DNA of 20,000 nt from an uncultured virus (IMG/VR IMGVR_UViG_3300040815_001293) (lineage: Duplodnaviria > Heunggongvirae > Uroviricota > Caudoviricetes), in IMG/VR virus record IMGVR_UViG_3300040815_001293. One strand, written 5' to 3'. The translations under genes and the position numbers were made by a program. The notes under the pieces were generated by a model. The model was given only the letters and a program-made list of their open reading frames with translations, searched no databases and was not told where the DNA came from. Below, in pieces: positions 1,939 through 19,296 of this stretch. Each line of letters opens with the position of its first letter. The stretch's first letter is position 1.

Positions 1939-3513
1939 ATGACATACAAAGCCCTCGACGGCGTATTAGTAAAAAAGCCACATCAGAACCAACGTTGGAC
2001 TGAAGAACAGTTAATAGATTTTAAAGAGTGTGCAGATTCTAACACAGGACCTGCTTATTTTTTAGGTAAGTATTTTCATATTCAGCACCCTGTTGACGGC
2101 AAGATTCTTTATAAACCATACAAGTATCAAGAAACTTTAGTCAACAGTTATCACTCTAATAGATTTAGTATTAATTTATTGAGTAGACAAATGGGAAAAA
2201 CTACAACTGCGGCTGGATACTTGTTGTGGTATGCTATGTTTGTACCAGACAGTACTATATTAATTGCGGCACACAAATATTCAGGTGCTCAAGAAATCAT
2301 GCAGAAGATTCGATACGCATATGAACTTATGCCAGATCATATTAGAGCGGGGGTAACAAGTTACAATAAAGGCAGTATAGAATTTGAAAACGGAAGTAGA
2401 ATTGTAGCACAAGCAACAACAGAAAACACAGGACGTGGTATGAGTATTACGTTATTGTACTGTGATGAGTTTGCGTTTGTAAGACCAACTATTGCAAAAG
2501 AGTTTTGGACAAGTATTTCACCAACATTAGCAACTGGTGGTAAAGCAATTATTACAAGCACACCTAACAGTGATGAAGATCAGTTTTGGTTATTGTGGAC
2601 AGAAGCAAACAGGACTATTGATGATTACGGACATCCTTTAAAAGATGGAATAGGGATAAACGGATTTTTTGGCTTTAAAGCATTATGGCGAGAACATCCT
2701 GACAGAGATGATGAATGGGCTAAAGAAGAATTAGGTCGTATTGGAGAAGAACGTTTTAAACGTGAAATGGACTGCGAACCAATTATATTTGATGAAACAT
2801 TAATCAATGCAATTAGATTAGCAGAGATGGAAGGTAAAGAGCCAATTGAAAGACAAGGTCAAGTACGTTGGTTTAAAAAACCTAAAAAAGGCAGTATATA
2901 CTTAATAAGTTTAGATCCAAGTTTAGGAACGGGTGGAGACAATGCGGCAATACAGGTTATAGAAATGCCTTCACTAGAGCAAGTTGCAGAGTTTATGCAC
3001 AATAAGACACCTATTGTACAGCAAATAAAAATAATGAAAGAAATAGGTGAGTATCTAGTACAGCAAATAGATGAACCTAATGATGTTTATTACAGCGTTG
3101 AAAACAATACGCTAGGAGAGGCGGCACTAGTTACAATACAAGAAATTGGTGAAGAAAATATACCAGGTTTCTTTATTAGTGAACCTAAAGGACATGGTAA
3201 TAGCAAAAGGTTTCGTAGAGGATTTAATACAACACATAAATCAAAAATCTCAGCCTGTGCTAAATTAAAGAGTTTAATTGAAACTAAAAGATTAACTATT
3301 AATAGTAGACCTCTGATATCAGAACTAAAGTCATTTGTGGCTGTGGGCAGTAGTTATCAAGCCAGACCAGGAGAAACTGACGATTTAGTTATGTCTTTAG
3401 TACTAGCAATACGCATGAGTATGGTGTTAAAGAAGTATGATGCTGGTATAGATGAGCTTTTAAGCGACAATTTTGACGATATAGTAGAACCCATGCCTAC
3501 ATTAATGTTATAA
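1939..3513 (+). CDS. terL: Terminase large subunit, T4 gp17-like
   Basis: Walker A SRQMGKTT, Walker B LLYCDEFAF, coupling motif ITSTPN, RNase H-like nuclease acidic residues (SLDPSLG, VENN, DDLVMSL). Confidence 0.96.
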   Translation: MTYKALDGVLVKKPHQNQRWTEEQLIDFKECADSNTGPAYFLGKYFHIQHPVDGKILYKPYKYQETLVNSYHSNRFSINLLSRQMGKTTTAAGYLLWYAMFVPDSTILIAAHKYSGAQEIMQKIRYAYELMPDHIRAGVTSYNKGSIEFENGSRIVAQATTENTGRGMSITLLYCDEFAFVRPTIAKEFWTSISPTLATGGKAIITSTPNSDEDQFWLLWTEANRTIDDYGHPLKDGIGINGFFGFKALWREHPDRDDEWAKEELGRIGEERFKREMDCEPIIFDETLINAIRLAEMEGKEPIERQGQVRWFKKPKKGSIYLISLDPSLGTGGDNAAIQVIEMPSLEQVAEFMHNKTPIVQQIKIMKEIGEYLVQQIDEPNDVYYSVENNTLGEAALVTIQEIGEENIPGFFISEPKGHGNSKRFRRGFNTTHKSKISACAKLKSLIETKRLTINSRPLISELKSFVAVGSSYQARPGETDDLVMSLVLAIRMSMVLKKYDAGIDELLSDNFDDIVEPMPTLML

Positions 3514-3530: not shown

Positions 3531-6002
3531 ATGCAAATACACAACAAAGTAGCCAACGATTTATATGGCATTTTAGCCAAGAAGTTTACTAAATTGACTA
3601 TTGCAGATAGTCAAGCAGTAACTACAGTTGAACCATCAGAAGGTAGAATTTTTACTTTAGAATATGGGGCAAGTGGTAAAAGTTATGGCAGTGTCACTGT
3701 AAACGTAGTAGATCCTAACTCTTTAGTAGTTTATTATAATACTAACATTAGTGAAGATATGCGTTACAATGATAAAAAAGATTGGTATGCTTTTTTAAAA
3801 GAATTAAGATATTTTTCTAAAAGAAATTTAATGAGTTTTGATGTTCGTAATATTGGTAAGCAACAGTTAGATAAAACTGATTATGCTTATATAAAATCTA
3901 ACGATAATAGTTATGATAGTTCAGAAGTAACTTTTGAAAGTAAATTAACAGGCACATTAAAAACATCATATCAACCATTTGGTGAAAATGTTAAATTAGT
4001 TATTAAACATAAAACACCAGTTGATGAAACTGTACGTGGTTCTAGAAGTAGAAGCATACATAGTTTGTATATAGAAAATGCCGACCAAGGAAGATTTAAA
4101 CTTCCTTTTAAAAGTTTAATTGCCGCGAGAGCAATGGCAAATCACGTTGCAAACAACGGATCATATGATGATGAAATTGGACAGCACATACATGAAATAA
4201 CACAAGAAGCCTACGATTTAACAAGGTTTGTTAAAACTTTCAGACGTGCTGATAACTTTGCTGAACAAGATGAAGCACAGAAAATTATTGAACAAGCAAA
4301 ACAACGTTATCAAGGTATTAGAGAAACTTTAAAAAGTTTATCAAAGCCTAAAGGATACGCAAGTTATGTAGAACAATATAAACCAACAGAAGATAATGTT
4401 GAACAAGCAGACTTAGATGAAATTAGAGGAAAGTTAGTTCGCATTCAAAAAGATAATATAGTAGACACAATACTGCCAAATTTGGCTAGAGGGATTAATA
4501 AAATGAAAGTACAAGAAACTGATAAATCTTTAGCACACAATCTTGCAAAAGATCCAAGTGCTAATTTAGAATTACGTCCGCATCCAGAAGAAGATGCAGA
4601 TATTAAAAACTATATGGCTCATATCAAAAAGATGATCATAAGAAAAGACAAAACTTCTGAAAATCCACAAGATGGTATTGTTAGAAAAATTATTATGTCG
4701 TTAGCAAAACGTACTGTTGACGATGCACTTTCTTTACAAATAAGTGATTTAGGTTCTATGGACAGTAAAGAAGATAAAACAGCGGCTTATCAGTTAGCCT
4801 CTAAATATTTAAAAGGCAAAGTTTCAGAGATCCCATTTGCTAGTAAAACTAAAGCAAAAACAGAAGAAGATCAATACGAAAGTATAATGAATAATTTATC
4901 AGAAGGTACTTGGGCAATTCCAGATACTGAAGAAGCAGTAAATAAACTAGAAAGTTTGATGGCAGATGTACTTCCCCTCGGTGCAGAAGGCGACAACGCA
5001 ACTAGTACAATGTACGGTATTATTGGTGATGATGAGTTATTTGATAACTTAGGAGACGCAGGAGATAAAGATCCACAAGGTGATGCTCGTCCAATTATTT
5101 GTGCATGGGTAAAAGAAAATTTAGATGGATACGATATACCAGCAGAATTAAACAGTAAAATCCATGATATTTGCAACAAGTTTACAGGTGTTGCAGAAGG
5201 TGGAGTTAAGAGATCATTAGAAGATGACGCTGAAAATTTAAGCAAAGAAGAGTTTATGAAAAAACATGGCGGACCTAATGCAGATGATGAGTCAGCATCC
5301 AATTTCTATGACAACTATAATGGTGTAGATGAAGCAGAAGTTCCAGAAGGAAACGAATTCACAGATGCTAGAAAAAAAGCCATTGATGCAGGTGAAACAG
5401 AATTTGAAGTAGATGGCAAGAAATATAAAGTTACTGGTGATACATCAGATGAGAAAAAGCAAAATGAAAACGTTGTAGACAACGCCGCTGATTCTGAAGG
5501 TATAGAAGAAATAGCAGATGCAATTAAATTCCGTATTACTGCAAATCCAGAAACATTTGAAAAGATATTAAAACATACAGATATGCAAACACTATTATCG
5601 GCAATCGAAAGTGTTGCTGAATTCCATGCTCCAATGGAGGAGTTAGGATCAAGCGATATTAGTGCTATGGTTAAAGAAGTGATGCAAGATTTAGGTGTTA
5701 AAGAAGAATATATTTTTAATGGCGAAAAAGTTGAAGAAGCACAAAGCCCGGCGCAAAAAGCCGCTTTTGAAAAAATGCTTGCCGCTAAAAAAGGTAATAA
5801 AAAAGACGATAGTAAGGAAGAAGAAAAAGAAGACGTTAAAGAAGAAGACGCTTATGACGGAACTCCTGAAGAAGTTAAAAAACTAAAAGCAAAAGAAAAA
5901 GCCGAAAAAGAAGAAGACAAGAAGAAAACTGAAGAATCAGTTGAAACACCGGCTGATCAGCATTTAGTAGACGAAATCTTATTTTTAGCAGGGTTGAAAT
6001 AA
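3531..6002 (+). CDS. Large phage protein with globular N-terminal half and acidic, modular C-terminal half; probable virion/head-associated protein
   Basis: 823-aa ORF directly after terL. Many (V/L)xE(G/A/E) sites, an EGNEFTDARKKAIDAGETEFEVDGKKYKVT module, a K/E-rich tail, and ends DEILFLAGLK. Function is inference. Confidence 0.7.
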   Translation: MQIHNKVANDLYGILAKKFTKLTIADSQAVTTVEPSEGRIFTLEYGASGKSYGSVTVNVVDPNSLVVYYNTNISEDMRYNDKKDWYAFLKELRYFSKRNLMSFDVRNIGKQQLDKTDYAYIKSNDNSYDSSEVTFESKLTGTLKTSYQPFGENVKLVIKHKTPVDETVRGSRSRSIHSLYIENADQGRFKLPFKSLIAARAMANHVANNGSYDDEIGQHIHEITQEAYDLTRFVKTFRRADNFAEQDEAQKIIEQAKQRYQGIRETLKSLSKPKGYASYVEQYKPTEDNVEQADLDEIRGKLVRIQKDNIVDTILPNLARGINKMKVQETDKSLAHNLAKDPSANLELRPHPEEDADIKNYMAHIKKMIIRKDKTSENPQDGIVRKIIMSLAKRTVDDALSLQISDLGSMDSKEDKTAAYQLASKYLKGKVSEIPFASKTKAKTEEDQYESIMNNLSEGTWAIPDTEEAVNKLESLMADVLPLGAEGDNATSTMYGIIGDDELFDNLGDAGDKDPQGDARPIICAWVKENLDGYDIPAELNSKIHDICNKFTGVAEGGVKRSLEDDAENLSKEEFMKKHGGPNADDESASNFYDNYNGVDEAEVPEGNEFTDARKKAIDAGETEFEVDGKKYKVTGDTSDEKKQNENVVDNAADSEGIEEIADAIKFRITANPETFEKILKHTDMQTLLSAIESVAEFHAPMEELGSSDISAMVKEVMQDLGVKEEYIFNGEKVEEAQSPAQKAAFEKMLAAKKGNKKDDSKEEEKEDVKEEDAYDGTPEEVKKLKAKEKAEKEEDKKKTEESVETPADQHLVDEILFLAGLK

Positions 6003-6058: not shown

Positions 6059-6307
6059 CTTTTAGTTAAGCAATATCAATTAATTTTAAGTGCAATACTT
6101 AAAAAAGATAAATTGGTAAAATAAAAAAAATTCCAAACGACAAAACAAGAGACTGAAAATGATATACTCAATTCTGGCTTTTTTATATAAAAACTCTCCA
6201 GACAATATTATCTACTCTTATTCTGTGTAATTGCACAGAGTTTTTAGTATGGGCTAACGGGTTGTAAAAGACCCAATATTAATGTAGTAAAACAAAGGAG
6301 AACATTT

Positions 6308-7363
6308 ATGTTTAAAAGACTACTACTTTCAGCAATCCTATCCTTAGGTATTGTTTCTTCAGCATTCGCTGATTATACACTAATCGTTCCTCAAGCACCT
6401 GGTAAAGGTACTTCAGTATGGAGCGAAATTATTGCAAAGAACTTAGAAAAGTTCGTTGGTGAGCCAGTAGTGGTACGCCATATTCCAGGAGCAAGAGATA
6501 TTCCTGGTTTCAATAAATTCCACAATGACCTACGTTTTGATGACAAAACAATTATGGTTGCACATGGTGGAAACGGTGTATCATACTTACTAGACAAAGT
6601 TGATTACAATTATTTCGATTATGAACTAATTGGATCAATGAACAATGATATTGTTCTTGGCAAACACGCAGGAGCAAAAGAAAAAGAAGGTACATGGACA
6701 ATCGCAGGCGGATCAGGTTTTGAACCAGATGCGGCGGCAGTTGCTATGTTACTATGCGGACCTCAAGGCAACAACACAGTAGACGACTATCTAAAATGTT
6801 GGAGAGAACGTGTAATTTGGGTTAACGGTGTATCAGGCGGAGAGAAACGTCTTGGTTTTAAAAATGGCGAATTTGATGTAGCCAGAGAATCACCTGCGGC
6901 TTGGAAACGTTTTTACGAAGGTATTGAAGGTAATGAATTATGGTTTACACACGGTATTCTAGATTTAGAAAACAATGTACAAATTCCAGATCCAAACTTT
7001 CCTAATACTCAGTTTGAAGATGTTTATGAATCACTATGGGGCGAACAGCCATCAGGCGATTTATACAATGCATACAAACTTACTCGTAATTGGAGAGATG
7101 CAATTCAAAAATCACTTTGGATGAACAAAGGAAACCCAAATGCGGCAAAAGTTAAAGCGGCTGTAACTGAAATGATCAACGATCCAGTTGCAAGTGCAGA
7201 AATTTATGCAAAGACAGGCGAGTACCCTTGGATCCAAGAAGGCCCAGAATTATTAGCGGCACTGAAATCATTGATTACAGAAAAAGCTCTTAAAGATGCG
7301 GTTAAGTGGAATCAAGAAGCATACGGCTTCCCATCAATCTATAAACCTGAACTTTTAAAGTAA
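6308..7363 (+). CDS. tctC: Tripartite tricarboxylate transporter periplasmic substrate-binding protein (TctC/Bug-like)
   Basis: Signal peptide ending AFA|D; YTLIVPQAPGKGTSVWSEIIAKNLEKFVGEPVVVRHIPGA matches the TctC N-terminal pattern (IVPxxPGGxxD...LGQPVVVENxPGA); AAGGAG RBS; adjacent to tctA. Confidence 0.8.
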   Translation: MFKRLLLSAILSLGIVSSAFADYTLIVPQAPGKGTSVWSEIIAKNLEKFVGEPVVVRHIPGARDIPGFNKFHNDLRFDDKTIMVAHGGNGVSYLLDKVDYNYFDYELIGSMNNDIVLGKHAGAKEKEGTWTIAGGSGFEPDAAAVAMLLCGPQGNNTVDDYLKCWRERVIWVNGVSGGEKRLGFKNGEFDVARESPAAWKRFYEGIEGNELWFTHGILDLENNVQIPDPNFPNTQFEDVYESLWGEQPSGDLYNAYKLTRNWRDAIQKSLWMNKGNPNAAKVKAAVTEMINDPVASAEIYAKTGEYPWIQEGPELLAALKSLITEKALKDAVKWNQEAYGFPSIYKPELLK

Positions 7364-7375
7364 AGGAATAGAACT

Positions 7376-8881
7376 ATGGATTATGTTATCTGGGCGTTAA
7401 TTGGCACCTGTTATGGAATGCTAGTTGGTATTATACCTATCGCAGGTGTAACTACCGCCCTGATAACTGTCTTTAGCATGGGAGCATACTTTATGGCTGA
7501 CCCCTATTTGGGGTTAGTCTTTCTTACTGCAATCGTGGCAAGTTGTGCCAGTGCAGATAGTTATACAAGTATTCTAACAGGTATACCAGGTGCTAGTACG
7601 ACAGCGGCTTGTGTTATTGATGGTTATCCAATGGCAAAGAAAGGCCAGGCGGCAAGAGCAATGGGAATTGCTATTACTGACTCTACATTTAATGGAGTTA
7701 TATTCGCGGCATTAACTTTCTTTTTACTTCCTTATTATGGGAAGGTTATCGTATTATTTGGACGTCCAGAGTTTCTGGGATTCATGACAATGGCCCTAGC
7801 CTGTGTAGGCTTTGTGGCAAGTAAAAATGTATTTTTAAGTATCTGTGCAATCATATTTGGATTAGCAGTGGGTATGGTAGGAGAAGATGTTGTAAGTAAT
7901 CCTAGACTGACATTTGGTTGGGAATATTTACAAAATGGAATTGGTATGGTAGTTTTACTATCAGGATTATTTGGAGTTCCAGAATTATTAGATGGATTTA
8001 GAAAAAAATTAAAATCAGCGGCACCGCCAATGGAAGGCAATTACTATGAAGGCTTAAAAGAAGGCTTTGGAGATTGTAAAAAGAATTGGCGAGACATGGC
8101 CCGAGGCGGAATAATTGGTTTTGTTACTGGTTTACTACCAGGTGTAGGAGGAGCAGTAGGAGACTTTTTGGCGTATGGAGCCACAAAAGCCGCACATAAA
8201 GAAAAACAAGAGGTTCCATTTGGCTCAGGTAACCCAATTGGATTATTAGGTTGCGAAGGCGCCAACAACGCACAGAAAGTATCTAGTATGATACCTGCTT
8301 GTTTGTTCGGTATTCCTGCGGCACCATTTGCCGCTATGGTTATGGCAATCTGTATGTACTTCGGTATGGAGATTGGCACACCTAGTCTACTAGATGATTT
8401 ACAGTTCACAAATAGTTTAGCATTTGGTTATATATTTGGAACTATCGGTGTAGCACTATTAAGTATATTCTTATATAAATGGATTCTTAAAATATTAGAA
8501 GTTCCTTTTTGGATATATGCTACATTTATTTTAGCAGTGATTGTTTATGCTAATATGCAATACACAGGCGGCTGGGAAGACTTGGCACTGTTAACAATTT
8601 TAAGTGCAATTGGATGTGTATGTAAACACTTTAATATCAGTAGACCAGCAATTCTTGTTGCATATGTTGTAGCATTTAAAATTGATGAATACTTTTGGGG
8701 AACATTACAATTATACGGATACAAACAATGGAAGCCAGGCTTAACTTCTATGGAAGGATTTAGATGGGGAGAATTATTTAACATCTACAATCATCCTATC
8801 TTTCTTGTATGTATTGTAGTTGCACTAGGCATATTCATAAATAGTTTAGTAAGAAAAGATAAAGGATTGGATTATACATAG
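7376..8881 (+). CDS. tctA: Tripartite tricarboxylate transporter large membrane subunit (TctA family)
   Basis: 501 aa, multi-pass hydrophobic; TctA hallmarks SILTGIPG, VIDGYPMAKKGQA, GLLPGVGG, EGANNA, FGIP. Confidence 0.92.
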   Translation: MDYVIWALIGTCYGMLVGIIPIAGVTTALITVFSMGAYFMADPYLGLVFLTAIVASCASADSYTSILTGIPGASTTAACVIDGYPMAKKGQAARAMGIAITDSTFNGVIFAALTFFLLPYYGKVIVLFGRPEFLGFMTMALACVGFVASKNVFLSICAIIFGLAVGMVGEDVVSNPRLTFGWEYLQNGIGMVVLLSGLFGVPELLDGFRKKLKSAAPPMEGNYYEGLKEGFGDCKKNWRDMARGGIIGFVTGLLPGVGGAVGDFLAYGATKAAHKEKQEVPFGSGNPIGLLGCEGANNAQKVSSMIPACLFGIPAAPFAAMVMAICMYFGMEIGTPSLLDDLQFTNSLAFGYIFGTIGVALLSIFLYKWILKILEVPFWIYATFILAVIVYANMQYTGGWEDLALLTILSAIGCVCKHFNISRPAILVAYVVAFKIDEYFWGTLQLYGYKQWKPGLTSMEGFRWGELFNIYNHPIFLVCIVVALGIFINSLVRKDKGLDYT

Positions 8882-8882
8882 A

Positions 8883-9629
8883 ATGAAACATCAAACTAAT
8901 TGGAATAAAACTTTACAACCTGCAGATGATTATGAAAGTAGTTGGGATTGGACAGTTGCACACAGTGAATACCATTTCGATGACAATGTCAAAGACCAAG
9001 AAGGTGATTGGTTTAAAGTATTAGGGAGATTTGATAATCCAAGTCTGTGGAAAGAAGAAACAGATAGATTAAAAAAAGATTCAACTAAGGCAATTAATTG
9101 GCAAACAAGAAAGTTTTTTGGAGATTCTCCAAAAGAGTCACCAATGTTAAAGCAAGAAGAATATGATATTGCACAAGGCGGCGGCGACCCTAAAGAACTT
9201 ATGTTAACTAACATGACAGATGAGTTAGAGAATTATCCTACACTTTTAAAAATGAAAGAGCATTTTGGTGTTATTGGAGATCAGAACGAATTTAAAGTCC
9301 GTTGTCACACTCAATTAACTGGACAGATGTTCAACTTGCATATTGACAAATTATGGGATCGTTGTTTAGAAGATCCAGAAAAAATATGTCGTATTACATT
9401 TTTCTTAGAAGATTGGAAACCTGGACAATTTTATATGTATGGTAATTATATATATGAACGTTGGAAAGCCGGCGAAGCACATATTTTTGATTGGCCCAAT
9501 GTACCACACGCAACGGCTAATACAAGTAGTTACCCGAGACCTATTATTCAGATTACAGGATTAAAATCTGAAAAGACTAGAGAAATTATTGCTAACGGTT
9601 CACGTGACACAGTATGGACACTAGAGTAA
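8883..9629 (+). CDS. 2OG-Fe(II)/cupin-fold oxygenase (Asp/Asn beta-hydroxylase-like)
   Basis: HxD...H facial triad (LHIDK...PHATAN), WKAGEAHIFD strand and distal Arg (YPRPIIQITG). Confidence 0.7.
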   Translation: MKHQTNWNKTLQPADDYESSWDWTVAHSEYHFDDNVKDQEGDWFKVLGRFDNPSLWKEETDRLKKDSTKAINWQTRKFFGDSPKESPMLKQEEYDIAQGGGDPKELMLTNMTDELENYPTLLKMKEHFGVIGDQNEFKVRCHTQLTGQMFNLHIDKLWDRCLEDPEKICRITFFLEDWKPGQFYMYGNYIYERWKAGEAHIFDWPNVPHATANTSSYPRPIIQITGLKSEKTREIIANGSRDTVWTLE

Positions 9630-9642
9630 GAAGTGGTAGAAA

Positions 9643-10284
9643 TTGAAACCAATACTAACAATAATGACAGGACCACAAGGTAGTGGTAATCATCTATTCA
9701 GTAAAGCATTAGGTCAAAATAAAAATATTTTTGCATGGCCTAGTTTACAAGAAAAGTATTGGGAAGGGCACGACTTAGAACCATTTGCAGAATATTGGAA
9801 ACACCCTAGTAGATTAAACAGATTTGACTGGACTCAAAGTTATCATTATGCAACAAGTATCAGTTGTCCATATTTTGATGATGGTAAAGAAACTATTCCA
9901 AATTATAAAAAATTTACAAAAGAAGCAAGTAAATATGCAAATATCCAATTTGCTATTATTGGTAGAGATAAAAACATATTAGAATTACAACAAGCGAGAG
10001 TAAGGGGTAAACTTACTACTCCTTTTTTTATGAAAGAGATTGAATATATAATCTCAAATTATAAAACAATTTTTGCAAGTCAAGAGTTATTATACCTGTA
10101 TAAATTATCTTATTTAAATTGGTTAGAAACAGAAATAGGGTTATTGCCATTAGAACTAACTACTAATGATACTATACTTTTAAAAATATTGAATACTGAC
10201 GCCAATGCAAAATATATATCACAAGCAGAGTCGAAATTAGACGAAACAATAAAATTAGCAAGTAGTAAAAAAGGTGCAATATGA
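9643..10284 (+). CDS. Sulfotransferase-like P-loop protein (TTG start)
   Basis: N-terminal IMTGPQGSGNHLF resembles a degenerate 5'-PAPS-binding loop (GxxRSGT) and IIGRD resembles the 3'-phosphate-binding RDP motif; adjacent to an APS kinase. Confidence 0.5.
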   Translation: MKPILTIMTGPQGSGNHLFSKALGQNKNIFAWPSLQEKYWEGHDLEPFAEYWKHPSRLNRFDWTQSYHYATSISCPYFDDGKETIPNYKKFTKEASKYANIQFAIIGRDKNILELQQARVRGKLTTPFFMKEIEYIISNYKTIFASQELLYLYKLSYLNWLETEIGLLPLELTTNDTILLKILNTDANAKYISQAESKLDETIKLASSKKGAI

Positions 10285-10724
10285 AAATTTTAATATTTGG
10301 CTTGCCCGGTAGTGGAAAAACTACACTAGCAAAGCCAATGGCGGACTTACTCGGTGCAATACACATTAATGCAGACGAAGTACGCAAAACTTATGATGAC
10401 TGGGACTTTAGTTTAGTAGGTCGTTTAAGACAAGCCCAACGTATGCGTCATTTAGCAGACGGTGTTGTTATGGCAGGAAAAATTGCTATAGCAGATTTTG
10501 TTTGTCCTACTGAACAAGCACGAAAAGAATTCAATCCAGATTATACAGTTTGGATGAATACTATAAAAGAAGGTCGTTATGAAGACACGAATACTATGTT
10601 TGAAGATCCACTTCATTATGATTATCATGTAGCAGAATGGTTTACTGATACACATCAACAACTTTCAGCAGTTATAAAAAATTATATCCTTAGAAAAGAA
10701 AATAAGCCTACAGGGAGATTATAA
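10281..10724 (+). CDS. cysC: Adenylylsulfate (APS) kinase-like protein
   Basis: GLPGSGKTT P-loop, NADEVR, DFSLVGRLRQ, ADFVCP...R and FEDP mirror the CysC motifs; ATGA overlap with the upstream gene. Confidence 0.8.
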   Translation: MKILIFGLPGSGKTTLAKPMADLLGAIHINADEVRKTYDDWDFSLVGRLRQAQRMRHLADGVVMAGKIAIADFVCPTEQARKEFNPDYTVWMNTIKEGRYEDTNTMFEDPLHYDYHVAEWFTDTHQQLSAVIKNYILRKENKPTGRL

Positions 10725-11113
10725 TGTTTGACTGGAAAAAACCAACAACACAAATGTTAGGCAGATGGCAACCTTGGCACGATGGTCATACAGAGCTTTT
10801 TAAACGTGCATTAGCACAATCTGGACAAGTGATTATTATGGTAAGAGATGTACAAGGAGCAGATGCTGGTATGGGTAATACTGATAATCCTTTTGATTTT
10901 AACCAAGTTGTAGTCAATATACGCAATGGTTTAGAAAAGCATGGATTTACAATGAATCAAGAGTATATTGTTATGAAAGTACCTAATATTATCGACATAA
11001 GTTATGGTAGAGGTGTAGGTTACACATTTACAGAACATGACTTAGGAAAAGAAATACATAACATTAGTGCAACAAAAATCCGTGCAAATATGCGGAATTC
11101 TGGTAAATTATAA
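10724..11113 (+). CDS. HxGH-family nucleotidyltransferase (cytidyltransferase-like)
   Basis: GRWQPWHDGH and C-terminal ISATKIR; TAATG stop/start overlap with cysC. Confidence 0.8.
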   Translation: MFDWKKPTTQMLGRWQPWHDGHTELFKRALAQSGQVIIMVRDVQGADAGMGNTDNPFDFNQVVVNIRNGLEKHGFTMNQEYIVMKVPNIIDISYGRGVGYTFTEHDLGKEIHNISATKIRANMRNSGKL

Positions 11114-11131
11114 AAAAAGATAAAAAACCGG

Positions 11132-11160
11132 TTGACTTTGATTACCCAATACTGTATATT
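11132..11160 (+). promoter_or_regulatory. Sigma70-type promoter driving the non-coding element
   Basis: TTGACT (11132-11137) - 17 nt - TATATT (11155-11160), preceded by an A-tract. Confidence 0.7.
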
Positions 11161-11166
11161 AATAAT

Positions 11167-11395
11167 TAACAACTAACACAAAAGTCTTTATAAAACTTTT
11201 GAGTTTGTGGCGGAACAACTCTTCGGCAGAGGGGTAACGCACACTAATTCTTTTTAGGCGCCCGAGTGGGTAGGTTTAAGAGGAGGTGGTTCTAGTATAT
11301 TTCATATCTAAACCTTGCAAAAAATAGATGTGATCTGCTATTAGAAAGTTGGGGGTGAGTTCACAGCAAGGCCCTCCGAACAGTTAGTTGTAACA
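11167..11395 (+). ncRNA. Putative structured non-coding RNA of unknown family
   Basis: No meaningful ORF; about 52% GC over 11201-11290 by hand count versus a strongly AT-rich background; terminal helix acaactaac (11169-11177)/gttagttgt (11383-11391) encloses several hairpins; bounded by two promoters. Confidence 0.6.
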
Positions 11396-11421
11396 ATTAT
11401 TTCACATTCAGAAAAAAAAGG

Positions 11422-11450
11422 TTGACTTTGGATAAGAAGATAAATATAAT
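11422..11450 (+). promoter_or_regulatory. Composite promoter for the SSB gene: sigma70-type plus embedded late box
   Basis: TTGACT (11422-11427) - 17 nt - TATAAT (11445-11450), with TAAATA at 11441-11446. Confidence 0.75.
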
Positions 11451-11537
11451 TGTTAGCAGTACATCAGGAAGGTGTACAAATTGCTATCATAGGCAATATT
11501 ATTAATAACATAACTAGGCAAAAGAGAGGCATATATT

Positions 11538-12551
11538 ATGGCATCATTAGCAGATATCCGTGCGAAACTACAAGCACAGGACACCCGCTCACAAGGCGGA
11601 AACCGCGGCGGCGACAACGCAATTTTCCCACATTGGAACATTTCAGAAGGACAAAGTACAACACTTCGTTTTCTTCCAGATTCCAATTCACAAAACACAT
11701 TTTTCTGGGCCGAACGAGCAATGATTCGTTTACCGTTCCAAGGCATTAAAGGACAAGTAGATAGTAAACCTATTACTGTTCAAGTACCTTGTATGGAAAT
11801 GTGGGAACCAGTAGGTTCTTGTCCAATTCTAGCAGAAGTTAGACCGTGGTTTAAAGACAGTTCTTTAGAAGACATGGGTCGTAAGTATTGGAAAAAGAAA
11901 TCTTATGTATTCCAAGGTTTTGTGCGTGATAATCCATTAGATGAGGAATCTCCAGAGAATCCAATTCGTAGGTTTATTATGGGACCACAATTATTCAACA
12001 TTATCAAGGCATCTTTAATGGATCCTGATATGGAAGAATTACCAACAGATTACAATAAAGGAATTGACTTCCGTGTTGTAAAAACTTCTAAAGGTGGTTA
12101 CGCAGATTATTCAACTTCTAATTGGGCAAGAAAAGAAACTGCTCTTTCTGAAGAAGAACAAAAAGCGATTGAAACATATGGTCTATATGACTTAAATGAT
12201 TTCCTTCCTAAAAAACCTAATGAAGCCGAAGTTGGCATTATCAAACAAATGTTTGAAGATAGTGTCGATGGTAAGGCATATGACTCTGAAAAGTTTGGAC
12301 AATATTTCCGACCTTCGGGAGTACAACTACCGGACAATGGTAGTGCTAAAACAGTAGAAGCGGCTCCAACGCCAACTCCTACTGCAACTCAGACATCTGC
12401 TCCAGCAGAAACTGTGTCTGCTCCACAAGTTGAAGCAGTTGCAACTCCGGTTGCGGCACCTGTGGCAACACCGGCCCCAGCAACATCAGGTGGTGAATCA
12501 GGACAACGTGCTGAAGATATTTTAGCAATGATTCGTTCAAGACAACAGTAA
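11538..12551 (+). CDS. 32: Single-stranded DNA-binding protein, T4 gp32-like
   Basis: LRFLPD, VPCMEMW...CPIL, KYWKKKSY, GIDFRVVKTSKGGYADYSTSNW match the gp32 core; lies upstream of uvsX. Confidence 0.88.
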   Translation: MASLADIRAKLQAQDTRSQGGNRGGDNAIFPHWNISEGQSTTLRFLPDSNSQNTFFWAERAMIRLPFQGIKGQVDSKPITVQVPCMEMWEPVGSCPILAEVRPWFKDSSLEDMGRKYWKKKSYVFQGFVRDNPLDEESPENPIRRFIMGPQLFNIIKASLMDPDMEELPTDYNKGIDFRVVKTSKGGYADYSTSNWARKETALSEEEQKAIETYGLYDLNDFLPKKPNEAEVGIIKQMFEDSVDGKAYDSEKFGQYFRPSGVQLPDNGSAKTVEAAPTPTPTATQTSAPAETVSAPQVEAVATPVAAPVATPAPATSGGESGQRAEDILAMIRSRQQ

Positions 12552-12557
12552 TAAATC

Positions 12558-12590
12558 TAGGGAGGCGACTTCGGTCGTCTCCTATTTTTA
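12558..12590 (+). terminator. Intrinsic terminator with C(UUCG)G tetraloop
   Basis: ggaggcgac TTCG gtcgtctcc (12561-12582) followed by tattttt; UUCG loops are typical of T4-like terminators. Confidence 0.85.
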
Positions 12591-12606
12591 ACGTGAGAGA
12601 TAAAAC

Positions 12607-14360: not shown

Positions 14361-14649
14361 TATAAGTAAAAAAGCAGTAGAAATACTGTCAGAATACAAT
14401 AAATTCTCAAAAGAGTATAGTAAATATGTTACCGCACTTACTGAAGAAGATAATGAGAATCCAAATTGTGTAAAATTTAAACAACAAAAACATACATTGG
14501 ATCAACTAGCAGACGATTTAAATCGTAGTTTTAAAAAAGTAAGTTCAAATGTATTTGACAAAAAGATAACAAATACAGAACGTAAGTTAGAACAAGTAAA
14601 AGTTGATTTCATGAAGGGAATGTTAAATAATGGATTTCTTATTAAGTAA
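14347..14649 (+). CDS. Hypothetical coiled-coil protein
   Basis: In-frame ATG at 14347 overlapping the uvsY end is more plausible than the ORF-track start at 14317; fills the gap to the next gene. Confidence 0.6.
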   Translation: MYHYNISKKAVEILSEYNKFSKEYSKYVTALTEEDNENPNCVKFKQQKHTLDQLADDLNRSFKKVSSNVFDKKITNTERKLEQVKVDFMKGMLNNGFLIK

Positions 14650-15382
14650 CCCAGCCAATTCTAGACTACACAGTCTTAATTTTTTAAATCAAATATACGG
14701 ATATCCTGAAATGCTAGAAAGCATTGACAGTGTATTAGATGTTGGAAGTCGTGATGGACACGATGCATTTTGGTGGGCAATGTGTGATGATGGAGATGAA
14801 CAAAATCCAATACCTCTTAATATTAATGTTACTGCATTAGATAAAAATCCTGTTTGGAATACAGATTTTGAACATAAAAATATTAATAAAGTAAAAGGCG
14901 ACTGGGATGAAATTACATTTGATAAAAAGTTTGATGTAGTTTGGGCTCATAGTGTTTTACAAGAAGCAAAAGATCCATTAAAATTTTTACATAAAATGAA
15001 TGAAGTTTGTTCAGACGGGGGAGTTTTATGTTTAAGTTTTCCAAGTAATGTTAATACCTTTTATGGAGAACCTGATCATAGAGTGTATGATACTGCAACA
15101 CATCATATTACTATTGTAAGTTTAATTCATATGTTGGCACTGAGTGGTTTTAATACGAGAGACGGATTTTTACATAAACAACCTAATACTAACATCATTA
15201 ATGCATTTGTTTACAAAGATTCAAATGAAGTTTATGATTATAATGAAAAAACAATAAGCGATTTACTAGATTTAATGCCTGAAGTTTGTTCTGAACAAAT
15301 AAACAAATTTGGGTATTTAACAAATAAAGGATTGCTATTAAAATGGTTATCTGGTACCATTGTAGACTACTCAAACGTCTAA
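14630..15382 (+). CDS. Class I SAM-dependent methyltransferase
   Basis: Motif I VLDVGSRDG, VTALD, FDVVWAHSVL, DGGVLCLSFP. Confidence 0.82.
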   Translation: MDFLLSNPANSRLHSLNFLNQIYGYPEMLESIDSVLDVGSRDGHDAFWWAMCDDGDEQNPIPLNINVTALDKNPVWNTDFEHKNINKVKGDWDEITFDKKFDVVWAHSVLQEAKDPLKFLHKMNEVCSDGGVLCLSFPSNVNTFYGEPDHRVYDTATHHITIVSLIHMLALSGFNTRDGFLHKQPNTNIINAFVYKDSNEVYDYNEKTISDLLDLMPEVCSEQINKFGYLTNKGLLLKWLSGTIVDYSNV

Positions 15383-15413
15383 TATATTGTAGCACAACTA
15401 GATAAGTACTTAT

Positions 15414-16187
15414 ATGAAGAAACTTGTGCTAGTAACGGGCGGATTTGACCCCTTACACGACGGACATATATCCTATTTTATTGATGCTAAAAAACTCGGA
15501 GACAAGTTAATTGTAGGCGTTAACAGTGATGAGTGGCTCAGACATAAAAAAGGCAAAGAGTTTCAAAGCCTAAACATTCGTAAAACAATCATAAAACATT
15601 TAGACATGGTATCTGATGTCATCGAGTTTGATGACAGTGATGGCACTGCCTCCGGTGCTATAGAACTCTTACTAAAAGAGTACCCGCATGATGAAATCGT
15701 TTTCGCCAATGGAGGAGACCGGGTAGAAGAATCAACACCTGAAGTTAAAAAATTTGCATCTAAAGACAGAGTGTCATTTAAATTCAATGTAGGTGATGAA
15801 AAGAAATATGGTTCTCGCGATTTCCTTGCTTCTTGGGTAAATGCAAAAACAGATAGACCATGGGGTCATTATAAAATTTTATATAGAGACGACGGTGTTA
15901 AAGTAAAAGAGATTGTAATTAATCCAGGTAAGTCTTTATCATACCAAAAACATAATCTTAGAAGTGAACTTTGGCTAGTTACTAAAGGTGACGTTGCTAA
16001 TAATATTGAACACCCAGAAGATCCAAGACTAATTCATCAGCAAGTACTACACAAACACGAGTTCACAAACATAGAACCAAATACTTGGCATCAGTTAAAT
16101 AATCCTAGTACAGAAGATGTAAAACTTGTAGAAATACAATACGGCGAAAAGTGTACCGAGGAAGATATAGAACGTAAAGATGAATAG
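15414..16187 (+). CDS. Cytidylyl/adenylyltransferase (RfaE/TagD-like) fused to a type II mannose-6-phosphate isomerase-like cupin
   Basis: N-terminal VTGGFDPLHDGH, GVNSDEWL, FANGGDR; C-terminal RPWGHY...SLSYQKHNLRSELW...WHQLNNP...VEIQYG...EEDIER. Preceded by gaTAAGTActtatATG. Confidence 0.85.
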   Translation: MKKLVLVTGGFDPLHDGHISYFIDAKKLGDKLIVGVNSDEWLRHKKGKEFQSLNIRKTIIKHLDMVSDVIEFDDSDGTASGAIELLLKEYPHDEIVFANGGDRVEESTPEVKKFASKDRVSFKFNVGDEKKYGSRDFLASWVNAKTDRPWGHYKILYRDDGVKVKEIVINPGKSLSYQKHNLRSELWLVTKGDVANNIEHPEDPRLIHQQVLHKHEFTNIEPNTWHQLNNPSTEDVKLVEIQYGEKCTEEDIERKDE

Positions 16188-17004
16188 TATTAGAACATCA
16201 CAGTGTAAACATGGAAAGTTTTCTTACTTTACTAATGATACTATCATTGGGAAAAGTTTAGATATGTACGGCGAATACTGTGAACAAGAATTTATAGTAA
16301 TGTCGCACATGATACAACCAACGGATTTTGTATTAGACATTGGAGCAAACATAGGACTACATACAATATGGTTTGCCAAACACGCATTTCAAGGACAGAT
16401 AAGTTCTTTTGAACCAAACGAGTTCAGTAGAGAATTGTTATATAAAAATTTAGCAAACAATCAAACTTCAAACGTGCAAGTGTATAATAATTGTATAGGA
16501 GACAAAATCTCTTCAGTTTTTATAAGTTCTTATAGTCCACATATTCCAGGAAACTATGGAGAATGTACAGTACTAAACAAACGTTCTGGACCTTTTCACA
16601 CTTCGCAAATGGTTACTATTGACGGATTGCAACCAATAAAGGCAGACTTTATAAAGATAGATGTCGAAGGTTATGAAAAAGAAGTAATTATAGGTGCTCG
16701 CGAATCTATTAAAAAATTTAAACCAGGAATGTTAATTGAAGTTAATGACAATAAAGAACATATAGACTTTTTATGGAATGAACTAGTACCACAGGATTAC
16801 TTATTATGGTGGTTACCAGTTAGAAATTATAATCCAAATAACTTTAGAGGTGAGAAGAACAACATCTTTTTAAACAGTGGTGTTATAAATGTTGTTGCCT
16901 GCCACAGATCAAAAGCACAAGTTAATACATTAGATAAGATATTAACACCTATACAAGGTGCAGACGATACCTACATAAAAATGCATAAAAGATTACAGTA
17001 CTAG
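16180..17004 (+). CDS. FkbM-family methyltransferase
   Basis: VLDIGANIGLHT, SFEPN, FIKIDVEGYE. Confidence 0.9.
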   Translation: MNSIRTSQCKHGKFSYFTNDTIIGKSLDMYGEYCEQEFIVMSHMIQPTDFVLDIGANIGLHTIWFAKHAFQGQISSFEPNEFSRELLYKNLANNQTSNVQVYNNCIGDKISSVFISSYSPHIPGNYGECTVLNKRSGPFHTSQMVTIDGLQPIKADFIKIDVEGYEKEVIIGARESIKKFKPGMLIEVNDNKEHIDFLWNELVPQDYLLWWLPVRNYNPNNFRGEKNNIFLNSGVINVVACHRSKAQVNTLDKILTPIQGADDTYIKMHKRLQY

Positions 17005-17408: not shown

Positions 17409-17774
17409 ATGAACGTTTTACTTAAACAAGCAGTTGAACAAGTTGTTGAAACAATGAAACAAGATTATATTCGTTGGTCAACACATGATGGTAAAAAGCC
17501 GTTGAGCGGTTATAATCAAGAAGTTGTTGATAATTGGAATATTGAAATTAAAGAAGGTCAAAAATATATCAAACTTATCAAAAAAGATCATAAGAGTTCA
17601 TATGGCGGTGGTAGTGTAAACGGCTTTATTGTTAAAACTCCTACTAAAGGTTTTGTAGAAGGCGATATGCTTAAGGCGGCTAGTTATAATATGCCAGCAA
17701 CAAATTTTAAACGTGGTAACGTTTATGAAGATGCTAACAATGGTTCTATTGCAAGTTGGACAGGAATTAGTTAA
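17409..17774 (+). CDS. Phage hypothetical early protein
   Basis: 121 aa; GQKYIKL...GFI...GDMLKAASYNMPA...RGNV pattern is of a kind seen in T4-like phage small proteins; strong RBS. Confidence 0.75.
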   Translation: MNVLLKQAVEQVVETMKQDYIRWSTHDGKKPLSGYNQEVVDNWNIEIKEGQKYIKLIKKDHKSSYGGGSVNGFIVKTPTKGFVEGDMLKAASYNMPATNFKRGNVYEDANNGSIASWTGIS

Positions 17775-18283
17775 TGGATACAGAGTTTATTGAAAGGGCA
17801 AAGCAATTTGCCCGTAAGGCACATAATGGACAATTCCGTAAATACACAGGCTTACCTTATGTTACTCACACAGAAGAGGTAGCAAGTATTGTCGAATCTT
17901 ATAACGGCAGTAAGGAAATGATTGCCGCGGCTTTATTGCATGATACAGTGGAAGATACAGATGTAACTGTAGAGGATATTAGGAATGAATTTGGCAATTC
18001 AACTGCTGATATGGTCAAGTGGTTAACAGACACAAGTAAACCAGAAGATGGTAACCGACAAGTTCGTAAAACTATTGACAGGAATCGGTTAAGTCAATCA
18101 CCGGCGGCTGTTCAATTAATCAAAGCGGCTGACATGATTAGCAATGGTAAAGATATTATGGTAAATGATCCAAAGTTTGCCAAGGTATACATTGGGGAAA
18201 TGAAGTTGTTGTTAAATTCAATGACTAAGATTCATTCAATGGATATATACAATGAAGCAAAAGGAGTTGTAGATGCAATATGA
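17774..18283 (+). CDS. HD-domain hydrolase, Mesh1/SpoT-like small alarmone hydrolase family
   Basis: AHNGQFRKYTGLPYVTH, AALLHDTVEDT and LIKAADMISN match the RelA/SpoT hydrolase (HD_4) motifs; no synthetase domain. Confidence 0.85.
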   Translation: MDTEFIERAKQFARKAHNGQFRKYTGLPYVTHTEEVASIVESYNGSKEMIAAALLHDTVEDTDVTVEDIRNEFGNSTADMVKWLTDTSKPEDGNRQVRKTIDRNRLSQSPAAVQLIKAADMISNGKDIMVNDPKFAKVYIGEMKLLLNSMTKIHSMDIYNEAKGVVDAI

Positions 18284-18476
18284 AAGTCAAGTACCTGATA
18301 AGGTACTAGTGCATTGTACAGATAATGGGAAAGAATGGGAAGGTACTGTTCTTTCTTCTTATAATGGTGTTGTTAAGGTTTTGTTAGAAGGCGTTTCTCT
18401 TAATTTTAATCAATATAAGAAAAAGAATCTGTATGTTGCTAATTTTAGTGGAATGGAACTAACAATTTCACTGTAA
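18273..18476 (+). CDS. Small hypothetical protein (beta-rich)
   Basis: 67 aa; AAGGAG upstream inside the HD gene; overlaps its stop. Confidence 0.7.
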   Translation: MQYESQVPDKVLVHCTDNGKEWEGTVLSSYNGVVKVLLEGVSLNFNQYKKKNLYVANFSGMELTISL

Positions 18477-18479
18477 ACA

Positions 18480-18800
18480 ATGCAGATAGATTTACACGGA
18501 TATACAAAACACGATGCATGGAAACGATTTAAGAATCATGTAGAAATATGTGACTTAAATGGTCTTCGTAAATTTGTGGTTATTACTGGATATGGTGCAA
18601 TATATGACGAATTGCCCAAGTGGTGTGAAGCAATATCTTGTATATCTGAGGTAAAAACTATGCTACCAAACCGTGGATCCTACCAAATTATACTAAAAAA
18701 GAAGAAAAAAGATTTAAAAGTTTCTATAACCTCAAAAAACCCAGTAAAATCAACGGTTAATATAGCACCTTTATTAAAGAAATGGGGTTCTAAAGGTTGA
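18480..18800 (+). CDS. Stand-alone Smr (MutS2 C-terminal) domain protein
   Basis: IDLHGYT...A, VVITGYG and NRGSYQIILKK match the Smr signature motifs. Confidence 0.82.
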   Translation: MQIDLHGYTKHDAWKRFKNHVEICDLNGLRKFVVITGYGAIYDELPKWCEAISCISEVKTMLPNRGSYQIILKKKKKDLKVSITSKNPVKSTVNIAPLLKKWGSKG

Positions 18801-18858
18801 CAGATTCGCAAAAGATGTTATTATAATAGTATAAGTTAACAAAAAGGAGATACTAAAA
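18792..18858 (+). promoter_or_regulatory. Early promoter + RBS cassette, copy 2
   Basis: AAAGG-TTGACA (18797-18802)-16 nt-TATTAT (18819-18824), aagttaa, AGGAGATA; near-copy of 17341-17408. Confidence 0.8.
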
Positions 18859-19296
18859 ATGGCGTTTATTAATAAAGAAGATGTTAAAGCAATTAGAAAC
18901 GAACTTAAGAAACAATATCCTAATATTAAGTTTAGTGTAAGAAAAGATCACCATTCAAGTGTACAAGTTACACTATTGTCGGGTGATGTTGACTTTTATG
19001 ATGGATCTTTAGATTTCTTTGACAGGTATTCACAAGAAATTACACCATTTCCAGGTTCAGCACAAATTAACCAATACCATACACATTATTATGGTATACA
19101 TAAACCTTTATTTGATAACATATACGAAATATGTAAAACTGCTCCAATTAACGGAAACGGTTATCATAAAAACAAAGGTTGGTTTGATGATTCAGACGCA
19201 ATGACAGATTATTTCCACACTGCATATTATATTAACATTAGTGTTGGTGCTTGGAACAAGAACTATGAAGTTACTAAACAAAAGATGGCGGCATAA
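18859..19296 (+). CDS. LPD29-like (large polyvalent protein domain) early protein
   Basis: AIRNELKKQYPNIKFSVRKDHHSSVQV at the N-terminus and FDDSDAMTDYFHTAYY at the C-terminus resemble LPD29-type proteins. Confidence 0.55.
   Translation: MAFINKEDVKAIRNELKKQYPNIKFSVRKDHHSSVQVTLLSGDVDFYDGSLDFFDRYSQEITPFPGSAQINQYHTHYYGIHKPLFDNIYEICKTAPINGNGYHKNKGWFDDSDAMTDYFHTAYYINISVGAWNKNYEVTKQKMAA

Follow-up and report, generated by a model that had tools for sequence, protein, structure and literature searches.

The uptake genes that phages carry as auxiliary genes mostly encode single binding proteins. The subject of the present analysis is a phage cassette of six genes that encodes a binding protein and a membrane permease together with tailoring enzymes. 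It occupies positions 6308-11113 of a 20,000-nucleotide stretch of DNA from an uncultured virus of the Caudoviricetes (IMG/VR record IMGVR_UViG_3300040815_001293); this whole stretch is called the window below. In order, the genes encode a TctC-like solute-binding protein, a TctA permease, a protein with the 2-oxoglutarate (2OG)/Fe(II)-oxygenase fold (p248), a protein with the sulfotransferase fold (p213), a shortened P-loop kinase similar to adenosine 5'-phosphosulfate (APS) kinases (kin147), and a minimal nucleotidyltransferase of the HxGH (HIGH) type (NT129). The source is a large marine phage, a jumbo myovirus, and its large terminase subunit (TerL) is 51% identical to that of the PA5oct/Atu_ph07 group of jumbo myoviruses. 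The kinds of components found here are already known: tripartite tricarboxylate transporter (TTT) importers, 2OG oxygenases, sulfotransferase-fold enzymes, and phage auxiliary cassettes. The cassette is a real feature of viral genomes and is conserved among them. To interpret it as a pathway is plausible, but unproven.

The closest described importers are the TTT systems, such as TctCBA, the Bug systems of Bordetella, and the sulfolactate importer SlcHFG. The locus resembles them in its full-length PF01970 permease and in a secreted neighbour of the size of TctC, whose profile finds only Bug/TctC proteins in the PDB; the gene of the binding protein also comes first, which is the arrangement given in excerpts of a review of TTT systems (PMC5812351). 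It differs from them in that a TctB gene is absent, that PF03401 fails to detect the binding protein, and that the system is encoded by a virus, in an operon with tailoring enzymes. According to the same excerpts, TctB is poorly conserved and of unknown function, and archaea have TctA alone (PMC5812351).

The closest viral precedent comes from SUP05 viral contigs. In the main text of the original study (Roux et al. 2014, PMC4164917) and in a review (PMC6359870), viral tctA and 2OG-Fe(II) oxygenase genes are putative auxiliary genes whose role is stated to be unknown. Both cases involve a viral tctA with 2OG-Fe(II) oxygenase genes on marine contigs, whereas the main text of the earlier study (PMC4164917) gives a domain hit only and mentions neither a cassette nor a binding protein, a sulfotransferase-fold gene, or a kinase-nucleotidyltransferase pair. 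Supplementary tables aside, full-text searches found viral tctA only in that study and in the review citing it. For freshwater phages there is a survey of viral cysC, in excerpts of which the gene is associated with larger genomes (PMC10914622). Within the same scope, the searches found survey-level mentions of viral cysC and of sulfotransferases and no description of this cassette, in agreement with the original prediction, made from the DNA alone, that no phage system of this composition had been described.

Gene sets that combine a supply of 3'-phosphoadenosine 5'-phosphosulfate (PAPS) with a sulfotransferase are known from NodP/NodQ with NodH and from the bifunctional PAPS synthases. The metazoan PAPS synthase is a kinase-first fusion and, in this respect, is like the kinase-nucleotidyltransferase fusions mentioned below. 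The common feature is that candidates for an activating enzyme, an APS-kinase-type kinase, and a sulfotransferase are encoded together. Here, however, the activating enzyme would be a 129-aa HxGH protein that resembles nicotinamide mononucleotide adenylyltransferase (NMNAT), not Sat or CysDN; the kinase is without the C-terminal half of APS_kinase, and the transferase is without a sulfotransferase sequence signature.

A conserved viral core of four genes

All six open reading frames (ORFs) lie on the plus strand, and neighbours are 1-13 nt apart or overlap. The gene for the TctC-like protein (6308..7363, 351 aa) is followed after 12 nt by tctA (7376..8881, 501 aa), after a single nucleotide by the gene for p248 (8883..9629), and after 13 nt by the gene for p213 (9643..10284), which has a TTG start. 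The last two junctions are an ATGA overlap (10281-10284) with the kinase gene (10281..10724, 147 aa) and a TAATG overlap (10722-10726) with the gene for NT129 (10724..11113, 129 aa). These coordinates confirm the predicted row of co-oriented genes, no more than 13 nt apart or overlapping, and the block lies, as had been stated, between the terminase region and the gene for the single-stranded DNA-binding (SSB) protein, with TerL and a virion protein upstream and gp32 downstream.

A scan of IMG/VR with TctA yielded 34 loci at 78-100% identity. Linkage was counted at loci found via TctA that had enough flanking DNA, with hits over at least half of the query; the numbers are counts of contigs, not of independent lineages, and several loci are near-identical. 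The TctC-like gene stands directly upstream of TctA in every case (31/31), and p248 is encoded no more than 1.5 kb downstream in 29 of the 31. The gene for p213 is found within 3.2 kb, directly downstream, in 24 of 30 loci and within 8 kb on either side in 28 of 30. This synteny survey bears out the expectation that the genes co-occur in related phages, and TctC-TctA-p248-p213 is a conserved viral core.

Two contigs, of 306.7 kb and 342.6 kb, are the closest relatives in IMG/VR; the longer one has direct terminal repeats and is rated 100% complete. The TerL flank of the window is common only to L008, L010, L011, and L033, with gp32 downstream in the first three. In the remaining loci, the block is flanked by genes for PhoH, ClpB, IF3, Hsp20, ClpS, radical-SAM proteins, tryptophan dioxygenase, or DnaJ. 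Since the genomic flanks vary between loci in this way, the block moves as a unit. When the profile of the binding protein was searched against species-representative genomes, five contigs of metagenome-assembled genomes (MAGs) were found. One of them (L036, 55% guanine-cytosine (GC) content) preserves the complete six-gene order; the identities are 38-59%, and a single 276-aa ORF comprises both the kinase and the nucleotidyltransferase. The other four (L037-L040) hold only TctA followed by the TctC-like gene, and two of these carry obvious phage genes. The nearest matches filed as bacterial MAGs themselves contain phage genes (PhoH, ClpB, DnaJ, GH108, DUF3310).

Two further families accompany the core elsewhere. 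A family of about 225 aa that resembles S-adenosylmethionine (SAM) methyltransferases occurs in 28 of 39 related loci, often encoded immediately before the TctC-like protein. A P-loop-like family, here called the PGSRWSG family after its N-terminal loop FFTG-x-PGSRWSG, has members of about 175-215 aa and occurs in 17 of the 39. Both are absent from the window (best tblastn E 0.33), so that it has the core in reduced form, together with the kinase-nucleotidyltransferase accessory. Copies of the PGSRWSG family include L040:1556-2083, L037:2182-2730, and L002:2784-3419. Another lies on the MAG contig L038 (49% GC), the only bacterial-looking relative, where the TctA and TctC-like pair adjoins YcaO-TfuA, two 2OG oxygenases, and a radical-SAM gene. 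In the closest relatives (L010, L011, and L014), an extra segment of about 1.3 kb, absent from the window, separates p213 from the kinase. Just upstream of its TctC gene, L030 carries genes with Sulfotransfer_2 and 2OG-FeII_Oxy_3 domains.

Parts of the window are held by 18 RNA-library runs. In all of four metatranscriptome runs, contigs match the TctC-like gene with 0-1 differences. The TctC/TctA junction is bridged in two runs (X1, 6523-7631; X2, 6521-7527), and pieces of TctA, p248, and the kinase, as well as gp32, are also under RNA-library contigs. Much of TctA, p213, and NT129 is without contig cover in some runs, which proves nothing.

Identities of the six proteins

The identities of the proteins hold at the level of superfamily or fold, including those of p248 and p213, which are not recognised by any profile library. 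The permease is the clearest case. Its sequence matches PF01970 with E 2.9e-87 and 293.5 bits against a cut-off of 28.9, over profile positions 2-422 of 423, and its identity as TctA, as originally called, is certain. It has about 11 hydrophobic segments, including one extra segment, 474-492, on the C-terminal side of the Pfam domain.

The TctC-like protein has a single N-terminal hydrophobic segment, which fits a signal peptide; the mature protein would comprise residues 22-351. Neither NCBIfam nor PHROGs nor Pfam, up to E 10, yields a match. A profile of 15 members gave three matches only among 177,635 PDB sequences, and all of them are Bug/TctC proteins (BugD 2f5x, 4x9t, and BugE 2dvz); they are weak (E 0.18-0.28), with the N-terminal strand-loop region aligned. 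Single-sequence searches of the PDB with the TctC-like protein, p248, and p213 gave noise only, apart from 2dvz. A lead from the ESM Atlas is a bacterial cluster (score 0.97) in which 17% of the members carry PF03401. The protein is thus predicted to be a periplasmic solute-binding protein that is very divergent from the Bug/TctC family. The earlier TctC call probably holds at the superfamily level but is not backed by a match to PF03401.

A predicted complex of the mature TctC-like protein with TctA reached a score of 0.59, while the best of three controls reached 0.00. Of 157 solved complexes, 116 reach the mark used for such scores, as do 2 of 215 mismatched pairs; the passes at 0.60 or lower comprise only 18 of the 157 solved complexes but both of the mismatched pairs. 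The support is weak. At least 85% of the contacts agree between the prediction runs, and the pLDDT of the partner is at least 84. The pair is read as a TTT-type system that would work in a TctC/TctA-like manner without being tripartite.

For p248, an AlphaFold2 model from a 21-row alignment has a pLDDT of 85.6. In a structural search independent of Foldseek, all 50 matches listed are 2OG/Fe(II) oxygenases (Z 11.9-8.6). The best match is 1e5r (Z 11.9, root-mean-square deviation (rmsd) 3.0, 152 residues aligned), and PHD-type prolyl hydroxylases, prolyl 4-hydroxylase (P4H), L-proline cis-4-hydroxylase, and SnoK follow; Foldseek agrees on the fold (E 1e-5). Residues H153-x-D155, H209, and R219 lie on predicted strands and are invariant in the 21 sequences. 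By their positions, they would form the HxD...H iron triad and the Arg that binds the C5 carboxylate of 2OG. The oxygenase called in the original prediction is thus recovered as a 2OG fold with Z of about 12 and an invariant HxD...H...R pattern. The family comprises 246 relatives, and tblastn gave a weak match (E 2e-4) to a cyanophage protein annotated as "2OG-Fe(II) oxygenase family protein". No match was found in Pfam, NCBIfam, or PHROGs, and a profile search of the PDB gave nothing relevant. With the prolyl and proline hydroxylases (1e5r, PHD2, P4H, 4p7x), p248 has in common the double-stranded beta-helix (Z 10.7-11.9) and the HxD...H motif with its downstream Arg, but it has no Pfam model and carries an N-terminal extension of about 40 residues.

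The AlphaFold2 model of p213, from a 16-row alignment, has a pLDDT of 89.1. Among 48,161 chains, the 12 best-ranked are sulfotransferases without exception, at Z 11.9-9.2 and rmsd 3.9-5.3 over 162-180 aligned residues. The best is the sulfotransferase (ST) domain of olefin synthase (4gox, Z 11.9), and TPST1/2, NDST1, 3-OST-5, and SULT7A1 are also among them. Foldseek also places sulfotransferases on top, both in the PDB and among the BFVD viral models. The family has 1,386 metagenomic relatives at E <= 0.001 and 148 clusters at 50% identity, and it is mostly marine-viral. Residues R108-D109 are invariant, and R108 is presumably the Arg of the 3'-phosphate motif. The protein at 9643 therefore models as a sulfotransferase fold, as had been predicted; sulfotransferase chemistry is a putative assignment. 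The earlier call holds for the fold (the top 12 of 48,161) but finds no sequence family behind it and meets an atypical loop. The ST domain of the olefin synthase/CurM type has the same fold (174 residues of 4gox aligned), but the identity is 8%, and p213 is free-standing, not a domain of a megasynthase. A comparison of p213 with the PGSRWSG family by hhalign was set aside, as only 16 N-terminal residues were aligned (probability 5).

The kinase matches two Pfam families above their cut-offs, AAA_33 (35.3 bits) and APS_kinase (PF01583, 31.1 bits against a cut-off of 21.1). Its Walker A motif is GLPGSGKT, the probable APS kinase 2yvu ranks first among its specific PDB matches (E 2e-6), and D32, R35, F43, R48, F73, and P76 are invariant in the family. 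NT129 carries HxGH and ISxTxxR-like motifs and matches CTP_transf_like below the Pfam cut-off (E 6.6e-4). The two proteins are linked elsewhere: the kinase matches the N-terminal half and NT129 the C-terminal half of phrog_10255, and Xylella phage Salvo, Stenotrophomonas phage DLP6, and L036 encode them as one fused protein. At least 404 relatives are present in IMG/VR, and at 72 of the best 80 kinase loci there the nucleotidyltransferase follows the kinase. Sulfotransferase genes accompany some homologues, which supports a link to sulfation. In L102, a Sulfotransfer_2 gene (E 2.3e-13) lies directly upstream of the kinase, in L124 a Sulfotransfer_2-like gene lies 1.5 kb from it, and in DLP6 a Sulfotransfer_2 gene is found elsewhere in the genome. 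On the same side, canonical ATP sulfurylase (PF01747) was found in none of five phage genomes, while the control was positive in 5 of 14 genomes. The reverse test, which started from Sulfotransfer_2 loci, has too small a base for counting: of six loci, five are non-self, and a kinase is present at one.

One of the closest known arrangements is found in Ralstonia phage phiRSL1 (L041), where ORF238 (APS_kinase, E 2.7e-15; 37% identical to the window kinase) lies in one gene string with the Sulfotransfer_2 gene ORF232 (E 3.9e-21). The string from ORF232 to ORF238 contains the APS-kinase-family gene, three TET-associated glycosyltransferases, an APH-like kinase, a nucleoside triphosphate transferase, and the Sulfotransfer_2 gene, which suggests a sulfated glycosyl modification, possibly of DNA. 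It differs from the cassette in having no transporter, p213, or p248, with TET-associated glycosyltransferases as neighbours instead.

The proposed pathway and competing explanations

The most coherent reading is that the cassette imports, hydroxylates, and sulfates a compound, with the accessory pair supplying the donor. It is held tentatively and with less than even confidence. The order and conservation of the genes, the folds, the metal-binding motif, and the presence in metatranscriptome libraries are established; the substrate, the order of the reactions, the sulfate chemistry, and the formation of PAPS are inferred. During infection, the phage would install its own high-affinity importer for an organic anion, a TTT-type system without TctB. 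The imported compound or its derivative would then be hydroxylated by p248, and the new hydroxyl would receive a sulfuryl (or related) group from p213, with a 3'-phosphoadenylyl compound as the donor. The outcome would be either a sulfated product or a hydroxyl activated as a leaving group. The ST domains of the olefin synthase/CurM type, which sulfate a hydroxyl to activate elimination, are a precedent that would fit a hydroxylase/transferase pair. The kinase and NT129, accessory in this cassette, would supply the donor, PAPS or a PAPS-like nucleotide. A more ambitious version, in which a self-sufficient pathway imports a marine organic anion through a viral TctB-less TTT system, hydroxylates it, and sulfates it by a new enzyme family, with a minimal PAPS synthase in which NT129 is a new kind of ATP sulfurylase, seems unlikely. 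The original prediction of a self-contained import-hydroxylate-sulfate pathway agrees with the folds and with the linkage of the core, but the kinase-nucleotidyltransferase pair is optional, and the pathway is still an interpretation.

A number of results weigh against the proposed pathway. For the importer, TctB is missing: there is no ORF for it in the 12-nt and 1-nt gaps, and the products of the next genes have no hydrophobic segment. The ORFs adjoining TctA in L037-L040 are also without transmembrane segments. The RNA-library contigs demonstrate presence in such libraries, into which DNA may have been carried over. For p213, searches of NCBIfam, PHROGs, and Pfam (E 10) gave no match, Pfam is uninformative for all 45 family members scanned, the p213 profile found no sulfotransferase in the PDB, hhalign against three Sulfotransfer_2 proteins gave a probability of 0.1, and P-loop kinases start at Z 8.9 in the structural search, which leaves a margin of only about 3 Z. 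A tblastn search of the phage collection with p213 returned nothing. Its loop, GPQGSGNH, is a degenerate P-loop with neither Lys nor Arg and without the Lys-Ser/Thr of kinases, and thus lacks the Lys/Arg that we take to be usual in the 5'-phosphosulfate loop of sulfotransferases. The position eight residues after R108, presumably the Ser of the 3'-phosphate motif, is occupied by an invariant Gln116.

The points concerning the donor are of the same kind. The kinase is found at 14 and the nucleotidyltransferase at 12 of 30 TctA loci, and a 322-kb relative, 90% complete, has the four-gene core with the kinase absent (positive control in 4 of 5 records); the pair is an independently mobile accessory of the cassette. 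The kinase covers only positions 5-91 of the 152 of the APS_kinase profile, its C-terminal half being unmatched, and it falls below the NCBIfam cut-offs (23.9 against 138.7 bits for TIGR00455, 29.7 against 127 for NF004041). The CysC call is therefore retained as APS-kinase-like above the Pfam cut-off but not as an equivalog, as the protein is truncated. NT129 reaches 13.4 bits with ATP-sulfurylase (PF01747; cut-off 24.3, E 0.053), over the HxGH stretch only, and by its sequence appears closest to archaeal NMNAT, not to ATP sulfurylase; the nucleotidyltransferase call keeps its HxGH superfamily on these terms. At the 80 kinase loci, p213 and p248 occur twice and TctA with the TctC-like gene once. 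The neighbours of these loci were scanned for 150 of 278 clusters, namely all 87 seen in at least two loci and 63 singletons of at least 170 aa, and within this set a Pfam sulfotransferase lies near the kinase at one locus above the cut-off and at one more with a sub-threshold Sulfotransfer_1 match. Among 749 neighbour ORFs, a search with the p213 profile brought up no copies beyond the two already known. Salvo has the fusion and no match to PF03567 or PF13469, and the C-terminal part of phiRSL1 ORF238 is not an HxGH domain. Because the pair mostly travels without a recognisable sulfotransferase, the PAPS arm is weaker than it looks.

The best-surviving alternative is that the genes are inherited together without forming one pathway: the importer would be a stand-alone scavenging pair, like phage pstS, and p248 and p213 would modify a macromolecule (protein, glycan, or DNA). 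The nearest folds of p248 include the protein prolyl hydroxylases PHD2, P4H with EF-Tu, and OGFOD1, and those of p213 include tyrosylprotein and heparan sulfotransferases. The module lies among genes for replication and recombination and for sugar and methyl transfer, the phiRSL1 homologue and its sulfotransferase stand in a DNA-modification context, and TctA-TctC occurs without p248 or p213 in L037-L040. On the other hand, free-proline hydroxylases score as high as protein hydroxylases for p248, and the four-gene core is contiguous across very different contexts, down to the identities seen in L036. This contiguity is hard to explain otherwise and argues for a functional coupling of the core, so that separate functions are judged improbable, if still a serious contender.

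A second alternative concerns only the accessory pair, which might serve the salvage of a cofactor unrelated to PAPS, its adjacency to p213 being accidental here. A NadR-like nucleoside kinase with an NMN adenylyltransferase would then make NAD+, or another adenylylated cofactor would be formed. NT129 is best matched by archaeal NMNAT, with E 1e-8 in NCBIfam, E 5e-4 with PDB NMNATs (residues 11-83), and a common GRxQPxHxGH stretch. The pair is without p213 at 78 of the 80 kinase loci, mostly among T4-like replication genes, L111 has an NAD synthase about 2.5 kb away, and the core cassette exists without the pair. The NMNAT scores are, however, far below the family cut-offs (35 against 127 bits for NF002243, 30.3 against 181.2 for TIGR01527), the kinase is specifically APS-kinase-like and not a NadR kinase domain (AAA_28, E 0.0013, below the cut-off), and kinase homologues adjoin Sulfotransfer_2 genes in phiRSL1, L102, and L124. 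Salvage is accordingly regarded as doubtful.

It has also been considered that p213 is not a sulfotransferase and is instead a diverged P-loop kinase-like or nucleotide-binding enzyme, which could, for example, phosphorylate the hydroxylated product. The core fold is common to sulfotransferases and P-loop kinases, many kinases are found at Z 7.3-8.9, and the missing sequence signal and the atypical cofactor loop would fit this possibility. However, the Lys and Ser/Thr of Walker A are replaced, which speaks against ATP/Mg phosphotransfer. Moreover, the best 12 chains align over 162-180 residues, against about 135-150 for the kinases, and the viral-structure library ranks sulfotransferases first too; a kinase-like p213 is thus quite improbable. 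Finally, that a host fragment was mis-assembled into a phage contig is next to impossible, for although TTT transporters are typically cellular and the matches that tblastn with TctA gave in a curated collection of phages look like carried-over host DNA, the 34 IMG/VR loci include the complete contig with terminal repeats, the close relatives L008, L010, and L011 have the same TerL and gp32 flanks, and the nearest supposedly bacterial matches carry phage genes themselves, all in line with the block being viral.

Genomic surroundings and meaning for marine phages

Upstream of the cassette lie TerL (Terminase_6N/6C, 1939-3513) and an 823-aa virion protein (phrog_13484, 3531-6002). A terminator-like hairpin (6220-6241) stands at the end of this structural gene, and a Shine-Dalgarno-like AAGGAG, read from the sequence (6296..6301, plus strand), ends 6 nt before the first ATG of the cassette. 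A pattern scan also placed a weak promoter-like site at 6182-6211, upstream of the first cassette gene; the scan gave 26 sites where 22.4 were expected, and such sites alone are no evidence. Downstream, a 424-nt spacer is followed by the gp32-type SSB gene (11538-12551) and, further on, by the genes for UvsX and UvsY. The cassette thus has replication/recombination genes and sugar/methyl-transfer genes around it. The GC content of the block is 0.33-0.39, and that of the rest of the window about 0.30-0.41, without a sharp compositional break. Megablast of the whole window found no near-identical phage record, and Rfam and tRNA scans of the window gave no match.

In the spacer at 11114-11537, the box GGTTGACTTTG occurs twice in identical form (11130 and 11420). 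Each copy forms a good sigma-70-like promoter with TTGACT, a spacing of 17 nt, and TATATT or TATAAT (10 and 11 of 12 matches). RNA-library contigs start within this spacer and cover gp32 well, and the spacer has no Rfam match. Between gp32 and uvsX, at 12535-12606, two RNA-library runs have 24 other letters in place of 70 nt, probably a strain variant of the intergenic spacer. Past UvsY, three genes lie at 14630-17004: one for a SAM methyltransferase, one that joins a cytidylyltransferase-like domain (similar to RfaE domain II) to a cupin of the mannose-6-phosphate-isomerase type, and one for an FkbM methyltransferase. This set of three genes is kept in L010 and L014, and homologues of the cytidylyltransferase-cupin fusion lie near the kinase-nucleotidyltransferase pair at 6 of the 80 kinase loci. 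Genes for an HD_4 (RelA/SpoT-type HD) protein, a 106-aa Smr-domain protein, and an LPD29-domain protein follow in a row at 17774-19296; they may be accessories of stress signalling or nucleic-acid processing. The sole clear minus-strand gene encodes an HNH endonuclease (PF01844, E 7.5e-18; 1101-1640), just upstream of the terminase.

Two of the enzymes described here, p248 and p213, belong to families without a curated model. If the kinase-nucleotidyltransferase pair does make PAPS, it would represent a new route of sulfate activation. The cassette firmly ties a binding protein and a membrane permease to tailoring enzymes, and the arrangement is conserved across many large marine phages. The implication is that the virus changes both what the infected cell takes up and what the cell makes from it.

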